Part shown: piece after piece, positions 21,562-48,887 of the stretch | Layout of the letters: the number at the start of each line of letters is the position of its first letter | Numbering within the stretch: the stretch's first letter is position 1 | Assembly (NCBI GenBank): GCA_009841225.1 | Contig: VXMF01000002.1 | Span: 65,426 to 129,425 of the forward strand | From: Terriglobia bacterium | GTDB taxonomy: Bacteria; Acidobacteriota; Terriglobia; Bryobacterales; UBA6623 | DNA: 64,000 nucleotides | Reading direction: 5' to 3' | Position numbers and translations under genes: made by a program | Notes under the pieces: model-generated | The model's input: the letters and a program-made list of their open reading frames with translations, nothing else | The model's database searches: none | What the model was told of the DNA's origin: nothing

Positions 21562-22170
21562 TCAAGACGCTACAGTCGGCATGATTTCGAGGGTAGCGGC
21601 GGCGAATTGCCGAAAGGCTGTGTCGTCGAACAGCACGAAGGTCACGCGCTCAACTCTCGTCTCACCACCACTTAGCTTGCTCGCGACCGCGGCCACCGCA
21701 ATCTTCGAAGCCAGATCCATCGGGTAGCCGTATACGCCCGTACTTATGGCAGGCAGCGTGAGAGTACGAGTGCCGAGTTCGTCGGAAAGTTCAAGGCAGC
21801 GCTCGTAACATGATCGGAGGGCCGTTGGTTCCCCACTCCGCCCATCCCTGTAGATTGGACCCACTGCGTGGATTACCCATTGAGCTGGCAGCTTGCCTGC
21901 ACTTGTGGCCACAGCATCCCCGGCAGGACACTGCCCGATGCGGGCGCGGATCTCATCCAGGCCTCGCATGATCGCCGGTCCGCCGGCGCGATGAATCGCG
22001 CCATCGACTCCGCCACCACCCGCCAACCTGGAGTTGGCCGCGTTTCCGATGGCATCTGCAGGGATCTTCGTGATGTCGCCGACTACAAGGGAGAACTCCC
22101 GGTCCTTGATGCCAATCTTGAACTCGGCCCGCAACATGACGGCATTGTACTTGGGGTAGACAGAAACCAT
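21562..22170 (-). CDS. Macro domain protein (O-acetyl-ADP-ribose deacetylase / YmdB-like)
   Basis: VVGDITKIPADAIGNAANSRLAGGGGVDGAIHRAGG..., VIHAVGPIY, LTLPAISTGVYGYP. The start is uncertain (22170 or 22137). The ORF-track start at 22263 would run into the tmRNA promoter region. Confidence 0.85.
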   Translation of the reverse strand: MVSVYPKYNAVMLRAEFKIGIKDREFSLVVGDITKIPADAIGNAANSRLAGGGGVDGAIHRAGGPAIMRGLDEIRARIGQCPAGDAVATSAGKLPAQWVIHAVGPIYRDGRSGEPTALRSCYERCLELSDELGTRTLTLPAISTGVYGYPMDLASKIAVAAVASKLSGGETRVERVTFVLFDDTAFRQFAAATLEIMPTVAS

Positions 22171-22283
22171 CGGCTTGGGATGCTGTCGCTGTGATTCCAA
22201 GAAGCAAGACCCAAGCGCGAGCAAATTCGCCCTCTGGCTTGTATACTGCGAATAGCCGCCCACATGTTGAAGGTGGCTAAAGG

Positions 22284-22636
22284 GGGGGCGTACAGGATTC
22301 GACGAGATCGCAGTTGCTGCTTAGAGGCATGCCGGGTTCCGAGCACCCGTTAAACGATCGGAACAAAAGAACTGCCAACGACATGCAGTTTGCACACGCT
22401 GCCTAAGCTTAGGTAGCCGTCTTGGCCGCTGGGCTCGCACATCGGCACAAGACGTCATCTTGCGAGATAGGTTTCGAGGCTTCCGCCTGGAGTCTTGGGG
22501 CTGAGATCAATCAGGCTGGGCCGCAGGTCGCTTGTTCATTCACAGCCTGCAGTTGAGATCTTGGAATGAACTAAGCATGTAGGCTTTTTGCAGTGGCCTT
22601 TTTCGGACGCGGGTTCGATTCCCGCCGCCTCCACCA
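22284..22636 (+). ncRNA. ssrA: tmRNA (transfer-messenger RNA)
   Basis: The 5' end is GGGGGCGUACAGGAUUCGACG. The 3' end is GGACGCGGGUUCGAUUCCCGCCGCCUCCACCA. The acceptor stem GGGGGCG/CGCCUCC includes the G3:U70 alanine identity pair. A T-arm GGGUUCGAUUCCC is present, as is an internal tag ORF ending in ..AA-TAA. Confidence 0.95.
22374..22406 (+). other. tmRNA tag reading frame: (A)NDMQFAHAA-stop
   Basis: GCC AAC GAC ATG CAG TTT GCA CAC GCT GCC TAA. Same architecture as the E. coli ANDENYALAA tag; a second stop (TAG) follows 3 nt after the TAA. Confidence 0.7.
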
Positions 22637-22781
22637 TTTGAGGTTTCATGGGACACCAATCAGCTTCAGTGAGATCATTCAAACCACGGGCAAGCCCAGA
22701 CAACAGACTGCGAGACCACCTAGCTAAGTGCTACTATGACTTCGTCTATAGCCTAAAGCATCAACACTAGGCATATGAGGC

Positions 22782-23264
22782 ATGACCGGGACCGGCGAGC
22801 CGCTCGAATTCCCCGAGATGGAGCCAAGAGAATTCACCCAGCTAGCTGCATGGGCAAAATCAATGGCGGAAGGAAAGGGTGCGAGCTCTTCCGAAAGCCC
22901 CAAGGCGCGCCCAGCATTTGCCGGAACGCGAAGGCAATTGAGCGAGGACGAGCTCAAGTCGTCAGGCGTTCAGAAGCTCTTGCTGGAGGAGATTTACAAA
23001 CTCGACCAGGAGAACTCAGTACTCCAGAATTATCGAGAGAGGTTCCACGAGGCAGACAAGGATGTCGCCGTCCTGCAGTCCGAAAGAAAGAAGAGTGCCA
23101 AGCTGGAAGCACTGTACAGTCTCTCGCTGGCATCTGGCTCGATATTGATAGGACGAGCACTTCCTATGTTTGAGTCAGGAGACTCGTTCGGTGCATACGC
23201 GACAGGAGGACTAGGAATATTGCTATTGGGTGCTGCCATCCTGACAAAGGTGCTCGGAAAATGA
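22782..23264 (+). CDS. Hypothetical coiled-coil protein with two C-terminal TM helices (island gene A)
   Basis: 160 aa, about 50% GC. The central heptad-like region is KLLLEEIYKLDQENSVLQNYRERFHEADKDVAVLQSERKK. Then come the hydrophobic segments LYSLSLASGSILIGRALPMF and AYATGGLGILLLGAAILTKVL. The stop overlaps the next start (ATGA). Confidence 0.6.
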   Translation: MTGTGEPLEFPEMEPREFTQLAAWAKSMAEGKGASSSESPKARPAFAGTRRQLSEDELKSSGVQKLLLEEIYKLDQENSVLQNYRERFHEADKDVAVLQSERKKSAKLEALYSLSLASGSILIGRALPMFESGDSFGAYATGGLGILLLGAAILTKVLGK

Positions 23265-23647
23265 ATATCGAGATCGGAAATACCTACAACGCAGGTGAGC
23301 TGAACCTCGAATGCCTGTCGTTGCGCGTACGCGCGGATATTGATCTTGGCGACTATGTGCTTCTCTGCTCCAATTACCGGGCAGGAACCGTTACCAATGG
23401 TGTCCGTCATGCACTCTGGTTCGCGGATATGAGGATTCTAAAGGGAGATATCATCTTCGTCTTCACACGATCTGGCTCCTATGACCTGAGCACGTCAAAG
23501 GAGGGAACAAGGTTTCACTATATCTACTGGGGGCTCAAGGAACCGATCTGGAATGCAGACAACAGGGCACCAGTGCTGCTTCACGCCCCTATTTGGGAGA
23601 CCAAGCCACCGGATTCACTTCAAGCGAAGCCCTCAAAGGGCCCTTAA
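23261..23647 (+). CDS. Hypothetical small beta-rich protein (island gene B), possibly lamin-tail/Ig-like fold
   Basis: 128 aa, translationally coupled to gene A. The pattern E-x-LSLRVRADIDLGDYVLL...ILKGDIIFVFTRSG...IYWGLKEPIWNADNRAPVLL resembles the strand pattern of LTD domains, by eye only. Confidence 0.6.
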   Translation: MNIEIGNTYNAGELNLECLSLRVRADIDLGDYVLLCSNYRAGTVTNGVRHALWFADMRILKGDIIFVFTRSGSYDLSTSKEGTRFHYIYWGLKEPIWNADNRAPVLLHAPIWETKPPDSLQAKPSKGP

Positions 23648-23740
23648 TCGCCGCCAACTCCCTCGAGTCCAATTTTGTATTCTCGACCACATCCGTTGGT
23701 GCCGAAGACTCGACGGCAGGCACGTCGTCCACCGACTATC

Positions 23741-24691
23741 ATGAAATCGGGAACGGAAATGGCCCGGAGAGTCAGCTTTTCGCAGTTGCGCAGCAAGCTG
23801 CGGCAGGCCCAAGCCAAGCAAAAGCAGGCAATCGACAGATACAACCGTGAGGCACGGGCTCACAATCAGAAGGTCAAGTCGGCCGTTGCCAAGTACAACC
23901 AAGCAGTCAATCAATATAACTCACAGGTCCGCACGCATAACAGTCGCGTCCGCGCCAACCGGAACCGTCTGCGTCATGAGATCGAAAAGCTGGTGCGGGC
24001 GTCGTCAAAACCGGTCTACACGACGTTGAGAACATCCGCCGAGAACGTCCATCGCACGTACGTTCAACTCGAGTCCGACGCCGAGACTTCGCAGTACGAC
24101 AGCCGGTTCAACAAAGTCCTCGACCTCTCGGAGCGCGAGGCGGCCAACAACGCCAGCGTCATGAACGCGATGCTAGGGAATCCCGAGAGCGTAGACGGTC
24201 ACGAAAGCATCCAGTCGACTGCCCTCGATCCCATCCTCCAGCTAATCGGCACCGACTTATCTGAGCGATGGCATGGCGCTCTGTTCTCATTGAATCCCCG
24301 CAACCCGGATGCTGCACGGCACTTCTGTACGAGCGCACGAGAGCTCCTCTCGAGTATCCTAGACTCCCGAGCGCCAGATCTACTTGTCCTTGCCGAGATG
24401 CCTGCCTGCGAGAAGATGCCGAACGGCTCTCCCACGCGCCGGTCGAAGATCCGTTTCTTCCTCCAGCGGAGCAACATGGCCGAAAGAGCCCTAGAAGACT
24501 TCGTCGAAGAGGACATGAAGAACGTCCTGCAACTCTTTCGCGAGTTCAACGACGGCACTCATGGATCAGCGGGTCGCTTTTCCCTTGACCAACTGTTGGC
24601 AATCAAGAGAAGGGTCGAGCACGCCATAGAGTTTCTCTGGAGCATCATCCCGGACGACCTGCGGAACCCCCGCAGGCCAATCGCGCACTAG
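23741..24691 (+). CDS. Hypothetical protein (island gene C): Asn-rich coiled coil + C-terminal HEPN-like helical domain
   Basis: The ORF is 23675-24691 (TTG); ATG 23741 or 23759 is more plausible. The N-terminus is QAIDRYNREARAHNQKVKSAVAKYNQAVNQYNSQVRTHNSRVRANRNRL. The C-terminus is NPDAARHFCTSARELLSSILD ... LFREFNDGTHGS, an R-x6-H motif at 24539-24562, then ... IKRRVEHAIEFL. Confidence 0.6.
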   Translation: MKSGTEMARRVSFSQLRSKLRQAQAKQKQAIDRYNREARAHNQKVKSAVAKYNQAVNQYNSQVRTHNSRVRANRNRLRHEIEKLVRASSKPVYTTLRTSAENVHRTYVQLESDAETSQYDSRFNKVLDLSEREAANNASVMNAMLGNPESVDGHESIQSTALDPILQLIGTDLSERWHGALFSLNPRNPDAARHFCTSARELLSSILDSRAPDLLVLAEMPACEKMPNGSPTRRSKIRFFLQRSNMAERALEDFVEEDMKNVLQLFREFNDGTHGSAGRFSLDQLLAIKRRVEHAIEFLWSIIPDDLRNPRRPIAH

Positions 24692-25183
24692 CCTGGCACC
24701 AAACCTGCGTACTTCTCAGTTCCGCCGCAGACTACGAACCCACTTGAGCGGATCGGCCAGAAGCCGTCTCCAACCTGCTGCCCGGCGAAAGCTTGGCTCT
24801 AGAGGCTAGCCCAACTTGTTCTGGGGCATTCAGTTCAGAAATCCGTAGCGAACAGACTTCCGCAAATTCCCAATCCGCAAGTCCGGATACGAGGCTCACA
24901 GCCTAGAATTCATCCACGTCGACACCCTTGTTGTTGAGTGTGTGGGGTTGTGCGGCCCGCACACCCCTCGCCCGGCAGTTCCCAAGACCGCCAGCGCACC
25001 GAGTTGTGAGGCCTTGTCAAGGCAGCGTTCCACTTCGAGCGACTGCTCAAGGTGGATGTCCCACTCAACTTCCGCAGGGAGCAGTCGTTCAAACAGCTAG
25101 TGACCTGCGGCATGGACGCCGTGAAGGCGGTGGCAGGGTGGCACTAACCGGGTTGCTAGCATCCGAGTAGAATCGAAATTCTG

Positions 25184-25480
25184 ATGGACGTTAAGCGAAC
25201 TGAAGAGAAGCTACTGGCTGCGGAGCACAATTTGCGCGGCGCTGAAGCGCATGTTCACCGGACAGGGAAAGACTGGCGGGACGCAGAGGCGGCGTCGTAC
25301 AGTAACGAACGTCACCACAGATTGCGCAGAACGCACGGCGACAACTATCGGCAAGAGCTAAGAGACGCTTGGGACTCGGCGAGGAAATCATTCGACGATG
25401 CATGGGCGCGTCTTGAGAAGGCTAGAAGAGAACACGACGAAGCTATGGCCGCTAGCTGTGACCGACCAGAGTCAGGTTGA
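25184..25480 (+). CDS. Hypothetical all-helical charged protein (98 aa)
   Basis: ATG ORF with coiled-coil-like composition (EKLLAAEHNLRGAEAH.. ..DAWARLEKARREHDEAMA). It ends 50 nt before the IS left end. No family recognised. Confidence 0.35.
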   Translation: MDVKRTEEKLLAAEHNLRGAEAHVHRTGKDWRDAEAASYSNERHHRLRRTHGDNYRQELRDAWDSARKSFDDAWARLEKARREHDEAMAASCDRPESG

Positions 25481-25529
25481 CAAATCGAGCAGGGATGCGG
25501 GAGGCACGGTAAAGGTGCGATTCCTTAGA

Positions 25530-25574
25530 AGGGGAATTATATACGAACGTCCCGAAATTCCCGCTGAAATCGCT
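25530..25574. repeat. Left terminal inverted repeat of the IS1595-like element
   Basis: 42 identical positions, 1 mismatch and a 2-nt indel versus the right IR (see the mobile_element entry). Confidence 0.85.
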
Positions 25575-25762
25575 CACCGCCGGTCCCTCGGGCGCTTGAT
25601 CCGGCGGATGTTGACGGGGCGCAGCACCGCCTGAGCGACCTCCTCCATCGACGGCCGGGAGCCGTCGCGCTTGCGCAGCGCGAACTCCTCCCGCTTCTCC
25701 GCCATCGTCGGCTGGTACGCGCTGTCCACTAGCTCCACCGTCTTGCGCTTCGGCTTGCTCAT
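25574..25762 (-). CDS. Hypothetical small basic protein (62 aa), last gene of the IS cargo
   Basis: The ATGA start overlaps the upstream ORF. The stop codon (25574-25576) abuts the left IR. KRK/RRIKRPRDRR-rich ends; no recognised family. Confidence 0.45.
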   Translation of the reverse strand: MSKPKRKTVELVDSAYQPTMAEKREEFALRKRDGSRPSMEEVAQAVLRPVNIRRIKRPRDRR

Positions 25763-25980
25763 GGCCCCGAATTATACCGCTTGGGACGCCCGCCGGCCAG
25801 TTCCTCGCAACGCTCCAGGAACGCCTTGTACTCCTCGCCGTCCCGCATCTCTACCCGCCTGTCGTCCGGCAGGATGCAGACCGTCGGCTTGCCGGGGCAG
25901 GACTCGATGATCAGGCCGCTCAGCTTGTAGATGCGGAACGCCCTGTCCGTGTCGTGGAAGCGCTCGGGCGTCTTGGTCAT
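25759..25980 (-). CDS. Hypothetical protein (73 aa), IS cargo
   Basis: Starts 5 nt after the MTase stop and is coupled to the 62-aa ORF. No recognised family. Confidence 0.45.
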   Translation of the reverse strand: MTKTPERFHDTDRAFRIYKLSGLIIESCPGKPTVCILPDDRRVEMRDGEEYKAFLERCEELAGGRPKRYNSGP

Positions 25981-25984
25981 GCAA

Positions 25985-27469
25985 TCACGCGTCCAGCCCG
26001 CTCGCTCTAAGCTTCGCCATGAACGCTGCTTGGTCCATCGTGCCCTTTACTGAGTTGCAGTGGTTGCAGAGTAGCTGGAGGTTCTCCAAGTGGTCAGTGC
26101 CGCCTTTCGACTTGGCGACGACGTGATCGACCGTGAAGTTCTGGAACGGGAAGTGGTGGCCGCACCCGGCACACTTGCCCTCCTGCTTGCCGTAAAGAGT
26201 GTGCTTGTGCGTCTTGTACGGCGGGAGCTTGCCCACGTCTGTACGCCGCGGGATGTCCGTGCGGTGGATGACCTTCACAGCCTGCGTCGTGAAGTCCGTC
26301 TGCTGGCCCACGCGGTCCTGCTTCAAGCGGTGGACCATCAACTCGGCGGCCTTGGGGCTGATATCGATACCCGTCCACGACCGACCTAGGGCGTGCGCAG
26401 CGACGCAGGCCGTGGCGCAGCCGCAGAACGGGTCCAGCACCACATCGCCTTTTTCGGTGCTGGCTTCGATAATGCGGTTCAGGAGGGCGAGCGGCTTCTG
26501 TGTCGGGTAGCCGATTCGTTCCTTGTGGGCTCCCGAGAGCGAGCGGATGTCATTCCAGATATCCTGCACTGGAACTCCGCGCGACTCGTCAAGGTAGAGT
26601 TTCTTTCTGGCGTAGCCGGTCTTGGAGTAGTAGAGCCGTCCTTGGTCGTGCAACTTTTGCATGGTCTCCCGACTGTACCGCCACGATCTCGTGTGTCCGT
26701 TCCACTCATACTCGGGGTTGCCCTTGGCCGCTCCCCCGGGGCCGGTCATTGGAGTCGTTGCAAACTGCCTTCCTGTTTCCGGCTCTACATACCGATAGGT
26801 AGATTCCACGTACTGTCGATCTAGCGGAGCAAATACCTGGTTCCACGTCGGCTCCGGCCCTTTGGCGTAGAAAAGCAGTTTGTCGTGCACCCTGCCGAAA
26901 TGGCGAGACCCTTGGCCCACGTCGTTGTGCGCGCCGTATCGCCTCCATTGAATCTCGTTGCGGAAGTTCCCCGCGCCGAACACGCAGTCCATGACCAGCT
27001 TGAGATAGTGCGACGCCGTGGGGTCGCAATGTAGGTAGACGCTCCCGGCCGGCTTGAGCAGCCGCCGCATCTCCAATAGCCGCACGGCCATCATCACAAG
27101 GTACGATTTCATACCCTTGCCGTGGGCGATCCCGGCCGTGTCGATGACGTGGGGCAGGCAAGGCTCCTTCTCGGCTATTAGCCCGATCCAAGCGATATCT
27201 ACGTCATCCAGCGTCCACGTATCCTTGAAGGCGGCTCCCGCCGCTTCCGACCCGATGGGGGCACTGTACGTCCGGTTTGAGTTGAACGGCGGATCTAGGT
27301 AGATCAAGTCTACGGACTCCGAGTTCATGCCCCGCATAATGTCGAGGTTGTCCCCGGTCCAGATAGTCTGGTTCTTCCAGTTCGCTATCGCCATCAGATG
27401 GCCGTCAGTGTAGCGAAGCGGGGGAGGCCGAACGGGCGGAGGTTCTGGCGGGGCCAGCCCGAGGCTCAC
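25985..27469 (-). CDS. DNA methyltransferase (N6_N4_Mtase, beta-class, DPPF) fused to a C-terminal HNH endonuclease domain
   Basis: Motif IV is VDLIYLDPPFNSN near the N-terminus. Motif I is VVLDPFCGCATACVAAHALGRSWTGIDIS late in the sequence, which gives beta-class order. The C-terminal HNH is CAGCGHHF..FTVDHVVAKSKGGTDHLENLQLLCNHCNSVKG. GTG 27469 overlaps the transposase TGA (GTGA); ATG 27394 is the alternative start. Confidence 0.9.
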   Translation of the reverse strand: MSLGLAPPEPPPVRPPPLRYTDGHLMAIANWKNQTIWTGDNLDIMRGMNSESVDLIYLDPPFNSNRTYSAPIGSEAAGAAFKDTWTLDDVDIAWIGLIAEKEPCLPHVIDTAGIAHGKGMKSYLVMMAVRLLEMRRLLKPAGSVYLHCDPTASHYLKLVMDCVFGAGNFRNEIQWRRYGAHNDVGQGSRHFGRVHDKLLFYAKGPEPTWNQVFAPLDRQYVESTYRYVEPETGRQFATTPMTGPGGAAKGNPEYEWNGHTRSWRYSRETMQKLHDQGRLYYSKTGYARKKLYLDESRGVPVQDIWNDIRSLSGAHKERIGYPTQKPLALLNRIIEASTEKGDVVLDPFCGCATACVAAHALGRSWTGIDISPKAAELMVHRLKQDRVGQQTDFTTQAVKVIHRTDIPRRTDVGKLPPYKTHKHTLYGKQEGKCAGCGHHFPFQNFTVDHVVAKSKGGTDHLENLQLLCNHCNSVKGTMDQAAFMAKLRASGLDA

Positions 27470-28413
27470 ACCGTCAGCCTCGCACCCGAATCAAGCCCGT
27501 TAGGGGCGGTCAGATCCTTGTAGCGGAGCTGTCCGCCCTCCATCGCCCGAGCCATCGACCGCATCTGCTCGATGGTGTCCAGATCGCGGATGTTGTGGCG
27601 GCCCGCGAACTCGTCAACGTACCGCTGCAGGTGCTTCGGGCTCAGCTTGTGGAACGTGCCCTTATGCGCCCTCTTCAGGACCGCCCAGAATGACTCAATG
27701 CCGTTCGTGTGGGCCTGTCCCTTGACGTACTCGCCGACGGTGTGATTCACCGCTTCGTGGTCCATCCCCGGCATTCCCGCGTAGGACGGGTTGCCGTCCG
27801 TGTAGGCCGTCGCTCCGGGCTTCGCGCTGTCCTGTACGAAGCTCTGAAGCGTCGGCTTGTCCGCGGTATCGACCGTCTTCGCTGCGACCTTGTTGCTGGC
27901 CTGATCCTTCGCTCCGACCACCACCGCCTTGCCCACGGGACCGCGACCGCCCTTGAGCTTCTTGGACTCGTGCTTGTTCTTCTCCTGCCCTCCGAAGTAG
28001 GTCTCGCCGACCTCTACCGGACCATCGAACGGGGCCGCTTCGGGATCGGCCTTCCACGCCCTGCGGACGCGGTGGGCTAGGAACCAAGCGGTCTTCTGGG
28101 TGATGCCCAGATCGCGGTGGAGCTTCATGCTGGAGACGGACTTGAGATTGGTGGAGGCGAGGTACATGGCGTAGACCCAATCGCGGTACTTGACCTTCGC
28201 GCCCTCCATGAACGTGCCCGTCCCGACGTTGAACTGCTTGCCGCAGACCTTCTCGCGGCAGCGGAACGCGGCGCGCTTGCGCTTCGCGCCCGTCTGTACG
28301 TTGACGGAGCCGCACTCCGGGCAGCAAATCCCGTCTGGCCAGCGCTGCTTGACCAGCCACTTCTCGGCGGCATCATGGTCCGGGAACATCTGGAAGAACT
28401 CGGCAACGCTCAT
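27466..28413 (-). CDS. IS1595 family (ISXO2-like) transposase, first catalytic Asp replaced by Gly
   Basis: N-terminal Zn-ribbon: CPECGS..FRCREKVCGKQF. The DDE_Tnp_IS1595 core is VEVGETYFGG (family consensus VE[IV]DETY), AYTDGNPSY, HTNGIESFWAVLKR. Confidence 0.9.
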   Translation of the reverse strand: MSVAEFFQMFPDHDAAEKWLVKQRWPDGICCPECGSVNVQTGAKRKRAAFRCREKVCGKQFNVGTGTFMEGAKVKYRDWVYAMYLASTNLKSVSSMKLHRDLGITQKTAWFLAHRVRRAWKADPEAAPFDGPVEVGETYFGGQEKNKHESKKLKGGRGPVGKAVVVGAKDQASNKVAAKTVDTADKPTLQSFVQDSAKPGATAYTDGNPSYAGMPGMDHEAVNHTVGEYVKGQAHTNGIESFWAVLKRAHKGTFHKLSPKHLQRYVDEFAGRHNIRDLDTIEQMRSMARAMEGGQLRYKDLTAPNGLDSGARLTV

Positions 28414-32413: not shown

Positions 32414-33541
32414 ATGCTGTTCACCTATCACTCTCTGGATGATCAAGAGAAACGAGTGGAGCAGGCTACCGCCCGTATCCGATCCGATCTGCGTCTGCTC
32501 GTAGCTGCAGAGCCGCGGCGATGGACAGGTTGGCTCGCGCGCATGACGAGGGCTCGCGCCCTTGCCGCATCGAACAGCGTGGAAGGTATCAACGTATCTC
32601 ACGACGACGCGATCGCTGCGATCGACGGTGAAGATCCCGCGAACACGGATCGTGACACGTGGCGAGCGGTCATCGGCTACCGCGAGGCCATGCACTATAT
32701 CCTGCAGCGCCGTCAGAGCCCATCATTCAGGATTACGGAAGACGTGCTCTTGGCCGTTCATTTCATGATCTGCCAATCCGATCTAGCGGCGCATCCTGGC
32801 CAGTACCGTCCCGGATGGGTTGGAGTTAGAAACGCTCAAACCGGGAACCTATTACACGAAGGTGTAGATAGGGGCGAACTAGAGCCCCGCATCCAAGAAC
32901 TTCTCCAGTATGTGAATGAAGGAGATGTTGAGTCGCTCTTTCTGCGAGCGGCTATGACGCACCTAAACCTGGTGATGCTGCATCCATTCACCGATGGGAA
33001 CGGGAGAACGGCCAGATGCATCCATACCGCAGTATTGGCAACTGACGGAATCGTCGCTCCGGAATTCTCTTCCATCGAAGAGTACGTTGGCTACAACCAA
33101 CAGGAGTACTACGACGTGCTTTCAGAAGTCGGGGGTGGCGGGTGGAATCCAACGCGCAACGCAAAGCCGTGGGTGCGCTTCTGCTTGAGTGGCCACTACA
33201 GACAGTCGCAGACAATCCTTCGTAGGACGAGAGAGATCGAAAGGATCTATGCGGAGTTGCTAAACCTAGTTCAACACAACGGTTTCCCCGAGCGCACTGT
33301 GATGGCGCTGCTCCAAGCTGCGTTCGGGAGAGTACGGAACTCGTCCTACCGTGTTAGTGCAGATGTCTCCAACAATCTCGCCAGCCGAGACTTGAAGATG
33401 CTCGTTGATGCCGGATTACTGATCTCGGACGGCGAGAAGCGAGGACGCTATTACGTCGCCGGACCCAGAGTCGGAGAGATTCGCCGTAGATTCCGTCTAC
33501 CTAGAGGCGTCGACGATCCCTTCGCGACAGGTTGGCCGTGA
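32414..33541 (+). CDS. Fic/DOC family protein (class II, N-terminal inhibitory motif) with a C-terminal wHTH-like region
   Basis: The active site HPFTDGNGRTARC matches HxFx(D/E)GNGRxxR. The N-terminal SNSVEG matches the (S/T)xxxE(G/N) auto-inhibition motif. Confidence 0.9.
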   Translation: MLFTYHSLDDQEKRVEQATARIRSDLRLLVAAEPRRWTGWLARMTRARALAASNSVEGINVSHDDAIAAIDGEDPANTDRDTWRAVIGYREAMHYILQRRQSPSFRITEDVLLAVHFMICQSDLAAHPGQYRPGWVGVRNAQTGNLLHEGVDRGELEPRIQELLQYVNEGDVESLFLRAAMTHLNLVMLHPFTDGNGRTARCIHTAVLATDGIVAPEFSSIEEYVGYNQQEYYDVLSEVGGGGWNPTRNAKPWVRFCLSGHYRQSQTILRRTREIERIYAELLNLVQHNGFPERTVMALLQAAFGRVRNSSYRVSADVSNNLASRDLKMLVDAGLLISDGEKRGRYYVAGPRVGEIRRRFRLPRGVDDPFATGWP

Positions 33542-37692: not shown

Positions 37693-38511
37693 ATGCTTCA
37701 TTGGGATCATCCACAGGTTCGCGAACTCATCCGGCTGGCGGTGGCCGAGGATGTTGGCCCCGGCGACGTGACGACCGAGGCCTGTGTGCCCCAGGACTCG
37801 CAGAGCGTGGGTTATTTCTTGCCTAAACAAGACTTAACGTTGGCTGGCACTGAACTCCTTGGGATCATCTTTCACGAGGAGAAGATTGAAGTTCTGGAGA
37901 GCGACGGCACGCATCTGCCGACGGGCAAGGTCTTCGCCCGGGTCAGTGGTTCAACCCGACGACTGCTGACACTGGAGAGGACCGCATTGAACTTCCTGCA
38001 AAGGACTTGCGGCATCGCGACCTTGACGAGCCGATTCGTCAAGGCAATTGAGGGAACGCGTTGCACGGTCTTAGACACGCGGAAGACCAGTCCTGGCATG
38101 CGCATCCTTAATAAGCTGTCCGTCCGGGCAGGCGGAGGAACAAATCACAGGCTAGGGCTGTTCGACGCTGTGCTGATCAAGAACAACCACATCGACGCCG
38201 CGGGCGGAATCACACAAGCGGTTGAGAACTGTCGGCCCTCGGGTCGGACTATTGAGGTAGAGGTTCGCGACTTGGGGGAGTTGGAAGAGGCCCTCAGCTG
38301 TGGAATCCGCCATATCCTGCTTGACAACTTCTCCCCCGATCAAGTCACCGTGGCCGTGGGGCGGGTCGCGGGTCGGGCGAAGCTGGAGGTCTCCGGCAAC
38401 GTCCGGCTAGAGACGATCCGAAATTACGCAGAGGCCGGAGCCGACTATATTTCCGTTGGAGCGCTAACCCACTCAGCGCCGGCGGCGGACATCAGTTTCA
38501 GGCTGGAGTGA
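37693..38511 (+). CDS. nadC: Nicotinate-nucleotide pyrophosphorylase (carboxylating) / quinolinate phosphoribosyltransferase
   Basis: AEDVGPGDVTTEA, ERTALNFLQRTCGIAT, LDTRKTSPGMRILNKLSVRAGGGTNHRLGLFDAVLIKNNH, GADYISVGALTHSA. Confidence 0.95.
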   Translation: MLHWDHPQVRELIRLAVAEDVGPGDVTTEACVPQDSQSVGYFLPKQDLTLAGTELLGIIFHEEKIEVLESDGTHLPTGKVFARVSGSTRRLLTLERTALNFLQRTCGIATLTSRFVKAIEGTRCTVLDTRKTSPGMRILNKLSVRAGGGTNHRLGLFDAVLIKNNHIDAAGGITQAVENCRPSGRTIEVEVRDLGELEEALSCGIRHILLDNFSPDQVTVAVGRVAGRAKLEVSGNVRLETIRNYAEAGADYISVGALTHSAPAADISFRLE

Positions 38512-38811
38512 ACCGGAGCCTGCGACGTACGCCTTGTGACTGCGCCCGCGCCTCAACCCCAACTCGGTCAACACGGGCGGAATTTTCTCTGACATTGGCC
38601 AGCGCCACAACTGGGCAACCACTGCGCCCCACCACACCGTAGCTCGCAGCCAAGGATATGCCGAAAATCCTGACTCAATCCCCTGGTGCCATCGGATAGT
38701 CAACCACACGGCGATCGCGAAAGATAGGACAAGAGAGATCTTGTCACCCAAGTTCCCCCGGCGCCAATGAGTCAGCCAAGCCGATCTCTCGGGTTCAATC
38801 CTAGGCTGCAT
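38473..38811 (-). CDS. Small membrane protein (paralog 1)
   Basis: From ATG 38811: MQPRIEPERSAWLTHWRRG..DKISLVLSFAIAVWLTIRW.. This aligns with the N-terminus of the 39130-39408 product. The 3' end overlaps nadC by 39 nt. Confidence 0.5.
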   Translation of the reverse strand: MQPRIEPERSAWLTHWRRGNLGDKISLVLSFAIAVWLTIRWHQGIESGFSAYPWLRATVWWGAVVAQLWRWPMSEKIPPVLTELGLRRGRSHKAYVAGSGSLQPETDVRRRR

Positions 38812-38912
38812 GTCGGAGGCCATGCGCCCATTATGGCACCAGCTCCGAGTAGCGATACCGGGGCCGATGACATCCCCCATGGAGCACGTATACAGGGTCA
38901 AGGCTGGACCCG

Positions 38913-39058
38913 ATTCGGGCCGGGCAAAGTTGGAGGTCTACGGCAACGTCCGGCAAGAAACCATCTGAGCTTACGCCGGGACTGGAATCGAGTGAATTTC
39001 TGTTGGGGTGCTGACGCACTCCGCACCGGCAGCCGACATCAGCTTCAGGCTCGAGTGA
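38913..39058 (+). pseudogene. Duplicated nadC 3' fragment with two in-frame stops
   Basis: The in-frame reading AKLEVYGNVRQETI*AYAGTGIE*ISVGVLTHSAPAADISFRLE* compares with genuine NadC AKLEVSGNVRLETIRNYAEAGADYISVGALTHSAPAADISFRLE*. Roughly 75% nucleotide identity by eye to 38371-38511. Confidence 0.8.
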
Positions 39059-39129
39059 AATCGATCGACGGCTCCAATGCATCCCGAGCACGGGTGAACT
39101 GCGGGTGGTGTTGATCACTTGGGTGCCGG

Positions 39130-39408
39130 CTAGCGGCTCTCGGCCTGAACCGAGCGTGAGTCATTCAACTTCAACTCCGTAATGACAATGACCTCGCGCG
39201 ACTGCGACCGCGAGAAGTAGGCCCAGCCCAGCACAAGCCAGTAACCCGATATCCAGAACCAAGCGAGTGGATGGCCCGTTTCATACAATTCAACGGTTTG
39301 CCACGCGGAGAAAACAATCCCCAAAATGATCGCAACCTTTTCAGACGTTTTCTTGCGGCTCCATGGAGCCAGCCACCAAGATTCTTCGGGCGCAATCCTA
39401 CGCTCCAT
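39130..39408 (-). CDS. Small membrane protein (paralog 2)
   Basis: MERRIAPEESWWLAPWSRKKTSEKVAIILGIVFSAWQTV.. with two TM helices. It is a paralog of the 38473-38811 product. Confidence 0.55.
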   Translation of the reverse strand: MERRIAPEESWWLAPWSRKKTSEKVAIILGIVFSAWQTVELYETGHPLAWFWISGYWLVLGWAYFSRSQSREVIVITELKLNDSRSVQAESR

Positions 39409-39464
39409 AGTGGAATGCTACCACTGGATCAGCTGAACGCCTTGTAACGGCGCCGGTATATGCC

Positions 39465-41996
39465 TCACCCCTCGTGGAGTACTTCGACAGGGTCAAGGCG
39501 AGAGCCGATCCGGGCCGGATACAGCCCCGCGATGACGCTCGCGCCAAGGATCAGAGCGGTAGCCCCCAACAACAGGCCTGCCGGCCAGTGAAACTGGATC
39601 GTCCAGCCGAACGATTGCTTGTTGATTACCTTGATCAAGATCACTGAGAGCGCGCCGCCCAATACGAGACCGATCATGTTCGAAAGCAGTCCCAGTAGAC
39701 CCGCTTGGGCCAGCACGAGCTGGCGGACCTGCTTCTTCGTGGCGCCTAGAATCCGCAATACGCCCAGGTCCGTCTTGCGGTCTATGACCAAGGTCAGCAA
39801 CGCGCCTGCCATGCCCAGAATCGCCACTAGGATCGCCACCGCCTCCAGGGCATAGGTGATGGCAAACGTTCTGTCAAACACTTCGTTCGCCCTTTCGCGC
39901 AGCTCGCGGTTGCGCGCGACCCGTACACGGCGGCCGGCTATAGCTTCAATGATCTTGGACCTAGCTGCTTCGAGATCGGAGCCATCGGCCAGATACACAG
40001 CCGCGCTAGTCAGCTGTCGGTCAGGCAAGTACTCCATCAGCACCCCTCGATGCCCGATGACGTAGCCTTGCTCCGCGGAATAGTCGTAGTAGATCGCCAC
40101 GACTTCGAATTCTTCAGCGCCCTCGCCGATCGGTAGAGCCAAAGTGCTGCCGACCTTGAGGCCGTGCTTGTTGCTGAACGGCTCGCTGATGATCACGCTC
40201 TTGCTAGAGACCAGCTGCCTGCACATCGTTGGAATGTCCGGTCCGTGCAAAATTTGCATCTGGGATCGGCCGGGATGTACGCGGAAGTCTGCGAGTGCCA
40301 GATTTGCAGGTAGCCCGCCATAGCTGATCGAGTACCGACGGAAGCGGTCCACCGCGTCGACTTCCGGCAACGCTTCGACTAGGCCCGCAACCTCCTCCGA
40401 GAACGTGGCGGAATCCTCGGTACCGAGAGATTCTCCAGACCGAATGTACAAGTCGGCTTGCAGCTGGTTGCCCATCCACACAGACAAAGTGTCACGTAAG
40501 CTGCCAACCATGATCCCGACGCTCGCCATCATCGCTGTCGCGACTGCCATCGCTGCGACGATGACCGAGGTGCGTTTGAGAGATTGCGACAGGATCTGTA
40601 CTCCCAGCATCGGCGCCACCCCGAACAATCGCAGCACCGGGCCTGTCACGCGCCAAAGGCAGAAGCGAGCGACGAACGGGACGAGCATCGCAGCCGCTCC
40701 TATCAGGCAGACAGCTGCTGCGAATCCCCCATAGGGGAGCCGGTCCCAAGCCGGCACGAAGCACAGTGCCCCAGCTAGACCGGCAAGCACTGCCGCTCGG
40801 AGCGCCCACACGGTTCGCGTGACCGCGACCGCATACTCTTCCCTACCCTTCGCCATCGCTTCGACAGGTGCCACATATGAGGCTTCCCGTGCAGGACGCC
40901 ATGCCGCGAGCATTGACACCCCGATGCCTGCTAGGCCGGCAACTACGAGAGCCCACGGACGGAATGCAATCTCTCCCGGCTGGCTGCCGACATAGAGCGT
41001 CGCCACGGTGCGCCCCATCAACTCCACCGCTCCCACCGCCAGCGCACGTCCTAAGACCAGCCCAGCCAGAGTGCCCACGAGGCCGAAGAGTCCGGCCTCG
41101 ACGAGAAATCCCCACTGGATCGTTCGAGCCGACATGCCAAGTGCCCGCGCCGTCCCGATCTGGCTTCTCCGCCGCACGACCGATACTGAGATCGTGTTGT
41201 AGATCAGGAACGCGCCCACGATTAGCGCGATATAACTCAATACTCGAAGATTCCACCGGAACGAGTTGAGAAGCTTGCGGTTCTGTCGTGTCCTAGTGCC
41301 TGATGCACTTACTGCTGCCGCAGCCGGGACATGGTCTTTGAGCAGTGCCTCCCAGTCCGTCTCGTCTTCGCGCGGAACATGGACATAAATTCGGTCCAGG
41401 AATCCGACCCGGTCCAGTAGCCGCTGCGCCAAGGCGATATCGAGCACAACCATGCTGGCGATAGCCTTTCCGCCTTGATCCCGGTCTCCAAGCAGGTCCA
41501 GCACGGTAAAGGATTCGACCCGGTCGTTGATGGCTAGGTTGATTCGCTCCCCTACTTGTGCCCCGACTGACTCAGAGATCCAGACCACTCGCTCGTCATC
41601 GAAGGCGCTGACGCTAGGATTGGACAGGTCAATGCTGCCCAACATGGGCTGGTCGCCTATCAGGTCCACTCCAAACAGCGGCAGGCGCTCGCCTGTTGAC
41701 TCCACCGCGGCGTAGCCTTCGATGCGGGGTGAGAACTGCTGCTGCCCTGGCAGCCGGACCAGTCCGCCAAAGACGGATTCGGGGATCCCCCCCACTTGGG
41801 AGATCTCGTAGTCAGCGGTGCCTTGGAGCGATTCCAGCGAGGACTCGAAGGAACCAACAGATGCCTCGCCGGCCAAGTCGATGGCTACGACTACCGCTAC
41901 CCCCAACGCCACGCACGCGGCCGTTAACGCGGTGCGGAACGGCTCCCGAATCAAGGGCCTGCAAATCAACCGATAGAGCAGCCGCAGTCGATTCAT
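39465..41996 (-). CDS. ABC-transporter-type permease with duplicated FtsX domains (MacB/YbbP-like)
   Basis: It has two FtsX-like 4-TM modules, each preceded by a large extracytoplasmic loop, and a C-terminal ..YPARIGSRLDPVEVL motif. ATG 41996 (MNRLRLLYRL..) is preferred over the ORF start at 42134. No ATPase gene is adjacent. Confidence 0.8.
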   Translation of the reverse strand: MNRLRLLYRLICRPLIREPFRTALTAACVALGVAVVVAIDLAGEASVGSFESSLESLQGTADYEISQVGGIPESVFGGLVRLPGQQQFSPRIEGYAAVESTGERLPLFGVDLIGDQPMLGSIDLSNPSVSAFDDERVVWISESVGAQVGERINLAINDRVESFTVLDLLGDRDQGGKAIASMVVLDIALAQRLLDRVGFLDRIYVHVPREDETDWEALLKDHVPAAAAVSASGTRTRQNRKLLNSFRWNLRVLSYIALIVGAFLIYNTISVSVVRRRSQIGTARALGMSARTIQWGFLVEAGLFGLVGTLAGLVLGRALAVGAVELMGRTVATLYVGSQPGEIAFRPWALVVAGLAGIGVSMLAAWRPAREASYVAPVEAMAKGREEYAVAVTRTVWALRAAVLAGLAGALCFVPAWDRLPYGGFAAAVCLIGAAAMLVPFVARFCLWRVTGPVLRLFGVAPMLGVQILSQSLKRTSVIVAAMAVATAMMASVGIMVGSLRDTLSVWMGNQLQADLYIRSGESLGTEDSATFSEEVAGLVEALPEVDAVDRFRRYSISYGGLPANLALADFRVHPGRSQMQILHGPDIPTMCRQLVSSKSVIISEPFSNKHGLKVGSTLALPIGEGAEEFEVVAIYYDYSAEQGYVIGHRGVLMEYLPDRQLTSAAVYLADGSDLEAARSKIIEAIAGRRVRVARNRELRERANEVFDRTFAITYALEAVAILVAILGMAGALLTLVIDRKTDLGVLRILGATKKQVRQLVLAQAGLLGLLSNMIGLVLGGALSVILIKVINKQSFGWTIQFHWPAGLLLGATALILGASVIAGLYPARIGSRLDPVEVLHEG

Positions 41997-46712: not shown

Positions 46713-48725
46713 TTACCTGCGGCGGGTGGGCTGGGCCGAGTCGCGTTCCCACGCGATCTTGCAGTCGGGCAGTGCGCTTCGCAGAGACTGTACGCCGCTC
46801 TCGCTCACCAGCGTGTGATAGAGATTGAGCGCCGTGAGGTCCGCAAAGCCGCTCAAGGTTTCGATTGCCTCGTCGTCGACATCTGTGTTGTCGAGACTCA
46901 GCACTTGTAGGTTGGCGTTCGACGCCAGCGATGCGATGCCGTCGGAAGATACCTTGGCGTAGTCGAGGCTAAGCCTCTGGAGCGTCCGCAACGGCGCCAA
47001 CGCTTCGGCACCGGCGTCGTCGACGCGAGTGTTCGCGAGATCGAGCTCCGTCAGCGCCTCCAGCTCTGCCAATTGCCCGACTCCCTCGCTGGTGACGTTT
47101 GTGAAGGCGAGCGAGAGCCGTCGCAGTTGCGGTAGGGATACGATTGAGCGCAAGCCCTCGTCCCCTACCCGCGTGCCTGTCAGCCTGAGCTCAGTCAGGC
47201 TCTTCAAAGACGCAAGACTCGCGGCCCCGGGATCGCTCACCTGGGTGTAGTCCAGGTTCAACGATTCGAGTCGAGACAATCCCGCGATTGATTCGAGGTC
47301 GGAGTCGCCGATCGCTGTTCCAGCAAGTGAGAGCCTGAGCAAGTTATTCGAGGAGGCCAAGCTCGAAAGCCCGCTGCCTTCGACAAGAGATTGATCTAGG
47401 ACGAGTTCGCGGAGGGAATCCAGCTTTTCGAGATGGACTAGACCAGAATCTGTAATACGTGTATTTGCAAGCTTTAGAGCACGTAAGGTCGGAAGTGAGG
47501 CCAAGGCTTGCAAGCCGAGGTCGCTTACCTCGGTCGCACTCAGGTCTAGATACGTCACTGCTGGGAATCTGGTGATGGGCTCCAGCATTCCGTCTGTGGC
47601 AGCAGTCGCCTTGAGGGAGATCGAGACCCGCCCATCGGACAGGACCTCGGCAACCCCGCCGATCGAGCGGGCCCACTCCAGCAAGCCGTCCAGATCGCCA
47701 ATCGATGGCGCCCTCGATGTGACAGGCACGATGGATGGCGTGTTGTCGATGAACCGAATCTCCAAATTCGGCCGAGCGGAGCGCAGGTCAGCGATTCCTG
47801 CCGCAGTGGCCCGGGAATATCGCAGGTCGACGCTTCTCAACTCAGGCAGGGCTGCCAGCTGCGGCACGCCGGCGTTCGTGATCGGCGTGCGATAGAGGTT
47901 CAAGTCAACCAGCTCGTGCATTCCGCTGAGGTGCCCAAGACCCGCATCGGAGATCTTGGCTCCGCGCAGGTTCAGCATTCTCAGCGCAGTCAGCCCGGCA
48001 AGGTGGGCGACGCCTTCGTCGGAGAGCTCCAGATCGGCAAGGTCCAACTCGACCAAGCCGGAAAGGTCCGCAAGAGCCGCGAGGCCGCTATCGGTGACGT
48101 ACGTGCTCCGCAAGCGCAGGGTCTTGAGGCGGGGCAAGCGGGCAATATTGGCCAAGCCTTCATCGTTCACATCGGTCTGCGTCAGATCCAACCGCTCGAG
48201 GTTCTTGAACGCATCGAGGTGCGCGCCGGTCACCCGGGTCGACCTCAGCTGCAAGAAACGGAGCCGCTCGAGACTCGTGATTTTCTCGATCGCATGGTCA
48301 AACACTCTGATTCCCTTGAAGACGCTCATGAAGTGATGGCTGAGGTGCAGCGACTCCAAAGACTCCATCCCAGCGAGCGCGGCGATCAGATCGCTGTCGT
48401 CGACGTTGCCCAGAGTTCCGCAGCAGACGGGGTTCCACATCGTGCCGGGCAGAGTCAGGCTGCGGAGTCCCTTCAATGCGCTGATGCGTTCCAGATCCCG
48501 CGGATGCACTAGCGTACCGGTGAGGACGGCTTCGCGAACGGACAGCGGTCCTCGTGGCAGATCGATCGCGGACCGGATCTCCTCTCGGCTGCCTTCAAGT
48601 CTGATCGTTCCGCCTTGGGACAGTATCCAGACCGCGGCCTGCCTTTCGTCCAAGCGCTGCTGAGCGGCGGACGGCTGACCGATCAGCAGGCAGCCTGCCA
48701 AGAGAACGAGGAACGGACCCGTCAT
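46713..48725 (-). CDS. Leucine-rich repeat protein (RNI-like LRR), secreted, larger paralog
   Basis: The start is taken at MTGPFLVLLAGCLLIGQPSAA. It has more than 20 LRR units of the same type as the neighbouring gene. The ORF could extend to 48839. Confidence 0.8.
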   Translation of the reverse strand: MTGPFLVLLAGCLLIGQPSAAQQRLDERQAAVWILSQGGTIRLEGSREEIRSAIDLPRGPLSVREAVLTGTLVHPRDLERISALKGLRSLTLPGTMWNPVCCGTLGNVDDSDLIAALAGMESLESLHLSHHFMSVFKGIRVFDHAIEKITSLERLRFLQLRSTRVTGAHLDAFKNLERLDLTQTDVNDEGLANIARLPRLKTLRLRSTYVTDSGLAALADLSGLVELDLADLELSDEGVAHLAGLTALRMLNLRGAKISDAGLGHLSGMHELVDLNLYRTPITNAGVPQLAALPELRSVDLRYSRATAAGIADLRSARPNLEIRFIDNTPSIVPVTSRAPSIGDLDGLLEWARSIGGVAEVLSDGRVSISLKATAATDGMLEPITRFPAVTYLDLSATEVSDLGLQALASLPTLRALKLANTRITDSGLVHLEKLDSLRELVLDQSLVEGSGLSSLASSNNLLRLSLAGTAIGDSDLESIAGLSRLESLNLDYTQVSDPGAASLASLKSLTELRLTGTRVGDEGLRSIVSLPQLRRLSLAFTNVTSEGVGQLAELEALTELDLANTRVDDAGAEALAPLRTLQRLSLDYAKVSSDGIASLASNANLQVLSLDNTDVDDEAIETLSGFADLTALNLYHTLVSESGVQSLRSALPDCKIAWERDSAQPTRRR

Positions 48726-48887
48726 TCCATGTCGGCGGCGGCGCAGATCGAGCGCCAAACCCTCGGCCTCCTGCGCCCCGTCCAGCGCTATTGTAGCGGG
48801 CACATCAGGATCATCGGGACGGGATCCGCTCTGCGGCACGATGTCGCAGCCCTACGAGCTTGACTCCAATCGGTCCGGCCTGTCAGA

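Follow-up and report, generated by a model that had tools for sequence, protein, structure and literature searches.

Immediately downstream of the tmRNA gene ssrA of a Terriglobia bacterium (assembly GCA_009841225.1, contig VXMF01000002.1), three consecutive genes, here named A, B and C, are encoded on one strand, and the question arises of whether they work together as one system. They were studied within a stretch of 64,000 nucleotides (nt) of this contig (positions 65,426 to 129,425), which is called the window in the following and in whose numbering coordinates are given unless another locus is named. An original prediction, made from the sequence of the window, had regarded A, B and C as a single defence module in which a membrane protein, a small adaptor and a putative HEPN RNase cooperate by the logic of known abortive-infection systems. 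The coupling of A to B and a predicted nuclease domain in C are in line with this logic, but C was found to be independent of A and B, and the idea of one module is not supported. The locus is probably a patchwork in which two accessory cassettes, A-B and C, independent of each other, stand side by side at a tmRNA-adjacent hotspot. This replaces the three-component model with two units that can be tested separately.

Layout and independence of the two cassettes

The three open reading frames (ORFs) are real genes, each of which has conserved homologues. Their common strand, the ATGA overlap of A and B and the position directly 3' of ssrA, all described before, were confirmed by the ORF list and by ARAGORN. 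The locus is composed of the following features:

22284 to 22636, plus strand: tmRNA (ssrA) gene, found by ARAGORN; the variable region begins at its 3' end
22637 to 23667, plus strand: A-B cassette of 1,031 nt, delimited by blastn and junction alignment; replaced by 131 unrelated nt in the close relative L009
22782 to 23264, plus strand: gene A, an ORF of 160 amino acids (aa) with homologues directly upstream of B
23261 to 23647, plus strand: gene B, an ORF of 128 aa; soluble beta-sandwich with a predicted fold of the lamin tail domain (LTD) type
23668 to 24947, plus strand: C cassette of ~1.28 kb, delimited by blastn; leader, gene C and ~250 nt of 3' flank
23759 to 24691, plus strand: gene C, 310 aa; N-terminal Asn-rich long helix and helical domain, then C-terminal pP_pnuc_1
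24239 to 24637, plus strand: pP_pnuc_1 (PF18165) domain of C, found with Pfam
24948 to 28413, strand mixed or unspecified: further variable hotspot cargo (small ORFs, methyltransferase-HNH, IS1595), found in Pfam and PADLOC scans

A is separated from ssrA by 145 nt, and its stop codon (TGA) shares the sequence ATGA with the start codon (ATG) of B, by which B is translationally coupled to A. The start of C was assigned to the ATG at 23759, where all homologues begin, as does P0001, an annotated protein of an Acidobacteriia metagenome-assembled genome (MAG) that is 100% identical to C; the spacer between B and C therefore amounts to 111 nt. C thus lies downstream as predicted, but not at the 27–110 nt that had been given depending on its start. 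The annotation of the source MAG covers A (F4X12_00760) and C (F4X12_00770). The GC content is 54.2% for A, 51.7% for B, 58.0% for C and 55.7% for the three together; this is indeed lower than the 61.3% of the whole window, but not as low as the ~50% in a ~60% genome that had been estimated.

The borders of the two cassettes became visible by comparison with relatives. L009 is a close relative whose C is 86% identical and which is syntenic with the window in the order ScpA-ScpB-RluB-EamA-Macro-ssrA-C. Its nucleotide homology to the window stops at 22636, the 3' end of ssrA, and restarts at 23668, 20 nt past the stop codon of B, the 1,031-nt A-B segment of the window corresponding to 131 unrelated nt in L009; the blastn match to the C block covers 23668–24921 (86%). 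In L008, C is 89% identical and is located in a type I restriction-modification (R-M) locus that has only 23667–24947 in common with the window (blastn, 88%), with the same left edge. The C block is also shared with L010, and it has a leader of its own of 91 nt (the alignment of the leader itself was uninformative). Since the left edge of C is the same in the unrelated contexts of L008 and L009, C moves as a block of ~1.28 kb together with its leader. The cargo of the relatives differs on both sides of C. The locus is modular, and its two cassettes are independently mobile.

The gene content of close relatives diverges exactly from the 3' end of ssrA, and the locus is a tmRNA-adjacent variable hotspot. 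The earlier view of ssrA as a hotspot for islands was borne out in this respect, as the comparison with L009 revealed an accessory, variable locus that starts at the ssrA 3' end. A classical, tmRNA-targeted island integrated into ssrA was considered and rejected for lack of an att repeat and of a nearby integrase: a second copy of the 26-nt ssrA 3' end was not found at up to 3 mismatches, a separate repeat scan was likewise negative, and there was no integrase among the window ORFs scanned up to 38.5 kb.

The independence of the cassettes was equally apparent from their occurrence elsewhere. Loci of B homologues were retrieved with a hand-made DNA pattern derived from two B motifs (WFP...HFFYW), which samples only those members that keep both; this yielded at least 80 genome loci from more than 12 phyla, and 69 of the listed loci hold a true B gene and serve as the denominator for the A-B counts. 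The profile of C matched none of the listed 80 B loci, including the 69 with a true B gene. Conversely, 89 C loci were available, comprising six metagenomic or genomic and three plasmid homologues with annotated neighbourhoods and 80 metagenomic loci. Outside the window, the profiles of A and B matched a single one of these 89 loci, L129, and tblastn for A or B in seven C loci gave no match. In L129 (1029–2759), a C homologue (53%) and a divergent A-B pair, 35% and 32% identical to A and B of the window, converge on opposite strands, with 50 nt between the stop codon of the C homologue and the pair; no other of the 89 loci shows such an adjacency. A-B and C are therefore unable to share a transcript in L129. 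Two independent adjacencies of A-B and C, in the window and in L129, exceed what random positions would give and are what is expected of cassettes that use the same type of hotspot.

The A-B family

A word-indexed homology search returned three matches for A and two for B, and a verdict of orphan genes based on this search alone would have been misleading. When a profile of B was used for an exhaustive HMMER search, 923 representative clusters were recovered; 500 have E-values of 1e-10 or below, and the proteins are mostly of ~120 aa. That A and B are near-orphans was therefore rejected as an artefact of the word index, since the exhaustive profile search finds hundreds of relatives. The listed B loci span Bacteroidota, Spirochaetia, Alpha-, Beta- and Gammaproteobacteria, Desulfobacterota, Acidobacteriota, Planctomycetota, Fibrobacterota, Latescibacterota, Gemmatimonadota and others. 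For A, a hidden Markov model was built from three A sequences and used in rounds 1 and 2 only, because later rounds were contaminated by B through a fused ORF. With this model, A was found directly upstream of B and on the same strand in 60 of the 69 loci, and two of the nine exceptions are cut by the edge of the locus. In 46 of these 60 loci, the overlap between the stop codon of A and the start codon of B is exactly 4 nt. The same arrangement was seen in Qipengyuania, where a 142-aa gene runs into the B homologue with a 4-nt overlap and the pair lies between engB and a glyoxalase gene, and on another contig, where the gene after an A homologue encodes 118 aa and again overlaps by 4 nt; the partner genes were identified as A and B homologues by alignment (29–36% identity), and C is present in neither locus.

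No third gene recurs with A-B, as the next-largest cluster of neighbours was found in only five of the listed loci. The commonest neighbours were Phage_integrase (4), rve (3) and N6_N4_Mtase, GmrSD_N, RAMA and HSDR_N (2 each). Neither family has a match in Pfam, PADLOC, NCBIfam or PHROGs, and all members of A and B that were examined in public records are labelled "hypothetical protein". Two fusions of A and B (P0132 and a 281-aa ORF in L069) were considered as Rosetta-stone evidence and rejected, since the hairpin of A is replaced by unrelated sequence in a frameshift-like manner. A solo B gene without A was observed in Chryseobacterium populi (L025, 450–7485), directly upstream of a Wadjet-like operon that encodes proteins of 474, 189, 1134 and 388 aa, of which the 1134-aa protein matched JetC with an E-value of 6.8e-59. 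B without A occurs in other Bacteroidota as well; a 1,227-aa neighbour of a solo B in L051 has no relative in the PDB.

A-B is also carried by viruses: it was found on nine IMG/VR viral contigs, with A upstream of B in eight of them, and B is absent from cultured phages and from PLSDB plasmids. One of the viral contigs, L186, has a cultured relative in the Bacteroides phage BS-TP2 and is homologous to it through the terminase, the portal and a small helix-turn-helix (HTH) regulator; the homology resumes, with 92% identity, at a HigB/XRE pair. Between the HTH regulator and HigBA, a 929-nt A-B segment of L186 takes the place of the unrelated gp63 of BS-TP2, and this slot is a typical slot for accessory cargo. 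The replaced gp63 (L189, 6001–6525) encodes an unrelated protein of 174 aa with an N-terminal hydrophobic segment, and the slot may hold alternative small membrane-associated cargo genes. In sum, A-B is an uncatalogued, widespread and mobile two-gene cassette and the more novel part of the locus, compact with ~0.9–1.0 kb, conserved from Bacteroidota to Acidobacteriota and exchanged in phage and chromosomal cargo slots.

Homologues of A start with a variable, charged N-terminus, which is disordered in A of the window, followed by a conserved R-x-L-S-x-E-E-L segment. A conserved helix carries Leu residues in heptad spacing (67, 74 and 81) and then H89-x-x-D92-K93, and the C-terminus is a Gly-rich hydrophobic hairpin. 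In a hydropathy scan, 39 of 60 homologues had two hydrophobic segments. A of the window has one clear segment (residues 135–155) and a weaker one before it, so that of the two terminal transmembrane helices described earlier one is evident and the other is weak in this protein. From these features, A is predicted to be a small inner-membrane protein whose conserved helical region faces the cytoplasm. The description of B as a beta-rich, soluble protein of 128 aa was corroborated by its AlphaFold (AF2) model, which is an all-beta, eight-strand beta-sandwich with a predicted local distance difference test score (pLDDT) of 96.8. The top five matches of this model in a Foldseek search of the PDB were lamin-B1 tail domains, with a probability of 1.00 and template modelling (TM) scores of 0.51–0.58. 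B of the window had no Pfam match at E ≤ 1 and did not reach the gathering score of LTD (PF00932), and nine of 50 relatives matched LTD weakly, the best with an E-value of 9.4e-5. B is thus modelled as an LTD-type fold that lies below the Pfam threshold.

Gene C and the remainder of the window

The three proteins had been described as impossible to place in a named system. This holds for A and B, as described above, but not for C: residues 189–321 (numbering of the 338-aa ORF) match the Pfam family PF18165 (pP_pnuc_1, "predicted pPIWI-associating nuclease") with an E-value of 2.7e-43 and 147.2 bits at a cut-off of 26.3, and the match covers profile positions 2–133 of 133. PADLOC Aga_Nuclease was matched weakly (E 1e-7). 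The Pfam entry probably goes back to Burroughs et al. 2015; a literature search found no mention of PF18165. C has 1,848 homologues at E ≤ 1e-3, which are typically ~300 aa long, align end to end and are found in Acidobacteriota, Gammaproteobacteria and Alphaproteobacteria. Judged by its sequence, C joins a known but uncharacterised family of predicted nucleases as a new, solo member.

The AF2 model of C, calculated from 41 sequences, is all-helical (pLDDT 84.8, predicted TM score 0.77). A helix of 74 residues (7–80) is followed by two further helices up to residue 138 and then by a compact helical domain, which agrees with the earlier description of an Asn-rich coiled coil followed by a helical domain. 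The N-terminal part contains Asn-rich repeats and the motif LDLSEREAAN, which is invariant. In the C-terminal domain, D166, R170, W171, N182, D184, H188, C190, S192, R194, R228, R285 and E287 are conserved in 41 of 41 sequences, and H268, in 40 of 41, is part of a near-invariant N-x-G-T-H-G loop. The HEPN-like R-x6-H motif that had been noted exists in C of the window as R261-x6-H268, but only 27 of 41 sequences have R261, the others having Q, N, S or E at this position, and Foldseek returned no HEPN protein. Five positions before H268, at the site of the canonical catalytic Arg of HEPN, 37 of 41 sequences have Phe. C as a canonical HEPN protein was therefore rejected, on account of the variable Arg and of the lack of a structural match in Foldseek searches with the full-length model.

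The neighbourhoods of C homologues were of the following kind:

L001: PD-(D/E)XK and UvrD genes, DndB
L004: HigB/HTH pair directly upstream, gasdermin-protease gene downstream
L007: Bil-like E1, AbiEi/AbiEii
L008: type I R-M, AAA_15/DUF4276
L009: HATPase/helicase/methyltransferase cluster
L011: SLATT protein
Plasmids: type IV secretion system genes, reverse transcriptase and DNA polymerase, Eco57I/PaeR7I R-M pair, AAA ATPase, VapC

The company of C consists consistently of defence, toxin-antitoxin (TA) or conjugation genes. In Ruegeria (L004, 5338–6885; also L005 and L006), a HigB-like toxin/HTH antitoxin pair precedes C on the same strand at a distance of 37 nt, and the gasdermin-protease gene follows C. 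Argonaute or PIWI genes were found neither in the nine annotated C neighbourhoods nor, in the case of Argonaute, among the window ORFs tested. No family of neighbours occurs in more than eight of the 89 C loci; the commonest, judged by eye, is tyrosine recombinase-like. Neither 2.9 million IMG/VR contigs nor cultured phage genomes contain C. C is thus a stand-alone gene without a conserved partner. Since PF18165 is mostly solo here, with no Argonaute nearby, the name of the family and its presumed role need rethinking.

Beyond C, the variable region of the window contains the following genes:

25574 to 25762 and 25759 to 25980, minus strand: two small overlapping ORFs after the methyltransferase-HNH gene
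25985 to 27469, minus strand: N6/N4 DNA methyltransferase fused to a C-terminal HNH nuclease, found with Pfam and PADLOC
27466 to 28413, minus strand: IS1595-family transposase, overlapping the start of the methyltransferase-HNH gene

At the position of the methyltransferase-HNH/IS1595 cluster, L009 has HATPase_c_3, helicase and methyltransferase genes. On the other side of ssrA, directly upstream and on the opposite strand, lies a Macro-domain gene (21562–22263), whose label was taken from the syntenic gene of L009; because it is conserved in L009, it belongs to the core genome and not to the cargo of the island. About 8 kb from C, at 32414–33541, a Fic-domain protein (PADLOC SoFic, E 5e-47) is encoded in the midst of glycoside-hydrolase and sulfatase genes. 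Downstream of the quinolinate phosphoribosyltransferase gene, at 38369–39518, there are two pairs of imperfect direct repeats of 144 nt and 53 nt with 79% identity, ~550–600 nt apart. On the minus strand, 46713–48839 encodes a leucine-rich-repeat (LRR) protein of 708 aa, which among PDB entries best matches a GALA-type LRR protein (E 6e-23); such an ORF is unusual for a region of a bacterial chromosome.

Functional readings and known systems

For the first cassette, we propose a self-contained, translationally coupled module that would provide A at the inner membrane and B in the cytosol in a fixed proportion. B would bind or sense a ligand, which may be a phage or foreign protein or a nucleic acid, and would control A, which then would act on the membrane in the manner of abortive infection or superinfection exclusion. 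The second cassette is the stand-alone C, in which the long N-terminal coiled coil and the helical domain probably serve oligomerisation and autoinhibition; the nucleic-acid-cleaving effector is predicted to be the PF18165 domain, in which His, Arg, Asp and Glu residues are invariant. We infer the nuclease activity, the action on the membrane and any anti-phage role from these features. A role in defence or exclusion is plausible for A-B and for C, and a TA-like action of A-B is nearly as likely as abortive infection or exclusion. The furthest-reaching form of this proposal is that A-B is an undescribed, widespread conflict system (~900 clusters at 50% identity, more than 12 phyla, phage-carried) in which an LTD-fold sensor gates a membrane effector, and that C is a single-gene, Argonaute-independent defence nuclease of the PF18165 family; we consider this combined claim possible, short of probable, and put it forward tentatively. 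If A-B is a defence or exclusion system, LTD would be a new sensor fold in bacterial immunity.

Several observations weigh against two independent cassettes with a role in defence. The scan of the B-C interval, which was uninformative, predicted neither a terminator nor a promoter, and a read-through transcription of C from A-B is possible in the source genome; given the two lineages in which they are adjacent, A-B and C may have a loose functional link. PADLOC-DB 2.0 had no match for A or B of the window nor for nine diverse relatives, apart from one weak CorA match at chance level. The neighbours of A-B are heterogeneous, with 120 Pfam families among the 150 nearest, and many are housekeeping genes, such as those for MreB, CysRS, RNase E/G and ribonucleotide reductase as well as engB and the glyoxalase gene in Qipengyuania. 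With the full-length model of C, the best Foldseek E-values were 0.27 (PDB) and 0.57 (BFVD), neither of which is significant, profile searches of PDB sequences with full-length C and with its domain gave no significant match either, and the nuclease activity of C is a Pfam prediction. The checks suggested with the original prediction thus had a mixed outcome: PADLOC returned the weak Aga_Nuclease match for C and nothing for A and B, and Foldseek led from B to lamin-B1 tails and, for C, to no significant match. Likewise, the assignment to defence is in keeping with the relatives of C, which lie among defence and mobile genes, but finds no defence model that matches A-B.

How do other explanations compare with the two-cassette reading? 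That all three genes form a single abortive-infection operon, in which A would be the membrane sensor or effector, B the adaptor and C a HEPN RNase, is very unlikely, as C is missing from all of the 69 true B loci and A-B from 88 of the 89 other C loci, the two units converge in L129, the syntenic L009 has C without A-B, C travels with its own leader and the Arg of R-x6-H is present in 27 of 41 sequences only; the common strand, the spacer of 111 nt without a predicted terminator, the lowered GC content and the second adjacency in L129 would fit such an operon. C might instead be the nuclease partner of an Argonaute encoded elsewhere in the genome, to which the name "pPIWI-associating" of PF18165 and the weak Aga_Nuclease match (E 1e-7) point. 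We regard this as the least probable of the alternatives and highly improbable in itself: the nine annotated C neighbourhoods and the window ORFs tested lack an Argonaute gene, there is no large conserved partner across the 89 loci, C moves as a single-gene block, and EcbAgaN, the characterised nuclease of a prokaryotic Argonaute (pAgo), is unrelated to C.

Two further alternatives concern A-B. It could be a TA or addiction module, or a module for the timing of phage lysis, with A as membrane toxin or holin-like protein and B as neutraliser; it would then stabilise mobile elements rather than defend against phage, and C would be an unrelated neighbour. The tight two-gene architecture with its 4-nt overlap, the two-segment hydrophobic hairpin at the end of A, the vicinity of HigBA in the phage cargo slot and the patchy distribution with integrases and transposases nearby are all compatible with this, but the long conserved cytoplasmic domain of A is unusual for holins or Hok-type toxins, and in phage A-B lies between portal and head genes, outside the lysis cassette. 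We see it as a serious, if somewhat unlikely, explanation. Distinctly less likely is a cellular role outside of conflict, as a membrane-associated structural or stress component whose position beside C and ssrA is incidental. Such a role is hard to reconcile with the presence of A-B in one close relative and its absence from another, with the cassette swap in phage, with a spread over more than 12 phyla at ~30% identity without conserved neighbours and with its occurrence on viral contigs; it would account for the many A-B loci flanked by MreB, CysRS, RNase E/G or yidC-engB and for the failure of defence models to match. We therefore retain two separate cassettes as the best explanation of the locus.

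Comparison with known systems places the two cassettes in different company. With PF18165 and Aga_Nuclease, C shares its C-terminal 133 residues, which fit the full Pfam profile and, weakly, the PADLOC model, and the all-alpha architecture with invariant charged and His residues; C and more than 1,800 relatives differ in carrying an additional N-terminal coiled-coil domain and in being solo, and contrary to the family name there is no Argonaute beside those examined. EcbAgaN (bAgaN of the BPAN system) is a characterised nuclease of a long-B pAgo (PMC10620215, PMC13535254). Like C, it is labelled an Argonaute-associated nuclease and has a helical domain, but it is recognised by PADLOC as Aga_Helical-REase and has a PD-(D/E)XK domain of the DpnII-MboI type and no PF18165. 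The PADLOC match of C lies in the first half of Aga_Nuclease, which prompted the idea that the domain of C corresponds to the regulatory N-terminal domain of EcbAgaN; this was rejected for the differences just named and because hhalign of EcbAgaN against C gave a probability of 0.3%.

Single-protein HEPN effectors include the AbiD/F-, AbiJ- and ApeA-type Abi proteins. C resembles the HEPN effectors, including Agap-HEPN, in the combination of an N-terminal regulatory part with a C-terminal all-alpha domain, in a conserved His in the loop before the last helix and in its location in defence islands; it differs in that the R-x4-6-H motif which defines them is not conserved in C and that the full-length model of C does not lead to HEPN in Foldseek. 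Agap-HEPN, a pAgo-associated RNase, has the canonical pair R262/H267 (PMC11162769). For B, the relationship is to LTD (PF00932): the model of B superposes on lamin-B1 tails, but B is a stand-alone cytosolic protein of 120 aa that is paired with a membrane protein, and it does not form a domain within an intermediate filament or a secreted enzyme. A literature search for LTD in defence found nothing.

The two-gene exclusion module RexA/RexB of prophage lambda consists of a cytosolic sensor and a membrane effector, RexB, with four transmembrane helices. A-B differs from it in that the membrane gene comes first and that A has a hairpin of two segments instead of the four helices of RexB, and a relationship in sequence or fold is not expected. 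What A-B has in common with RexA/RexB is the design as a compact two-gene cassette in a cargo slot of a phage or hotspot, with one soluble and one small membrane protein.

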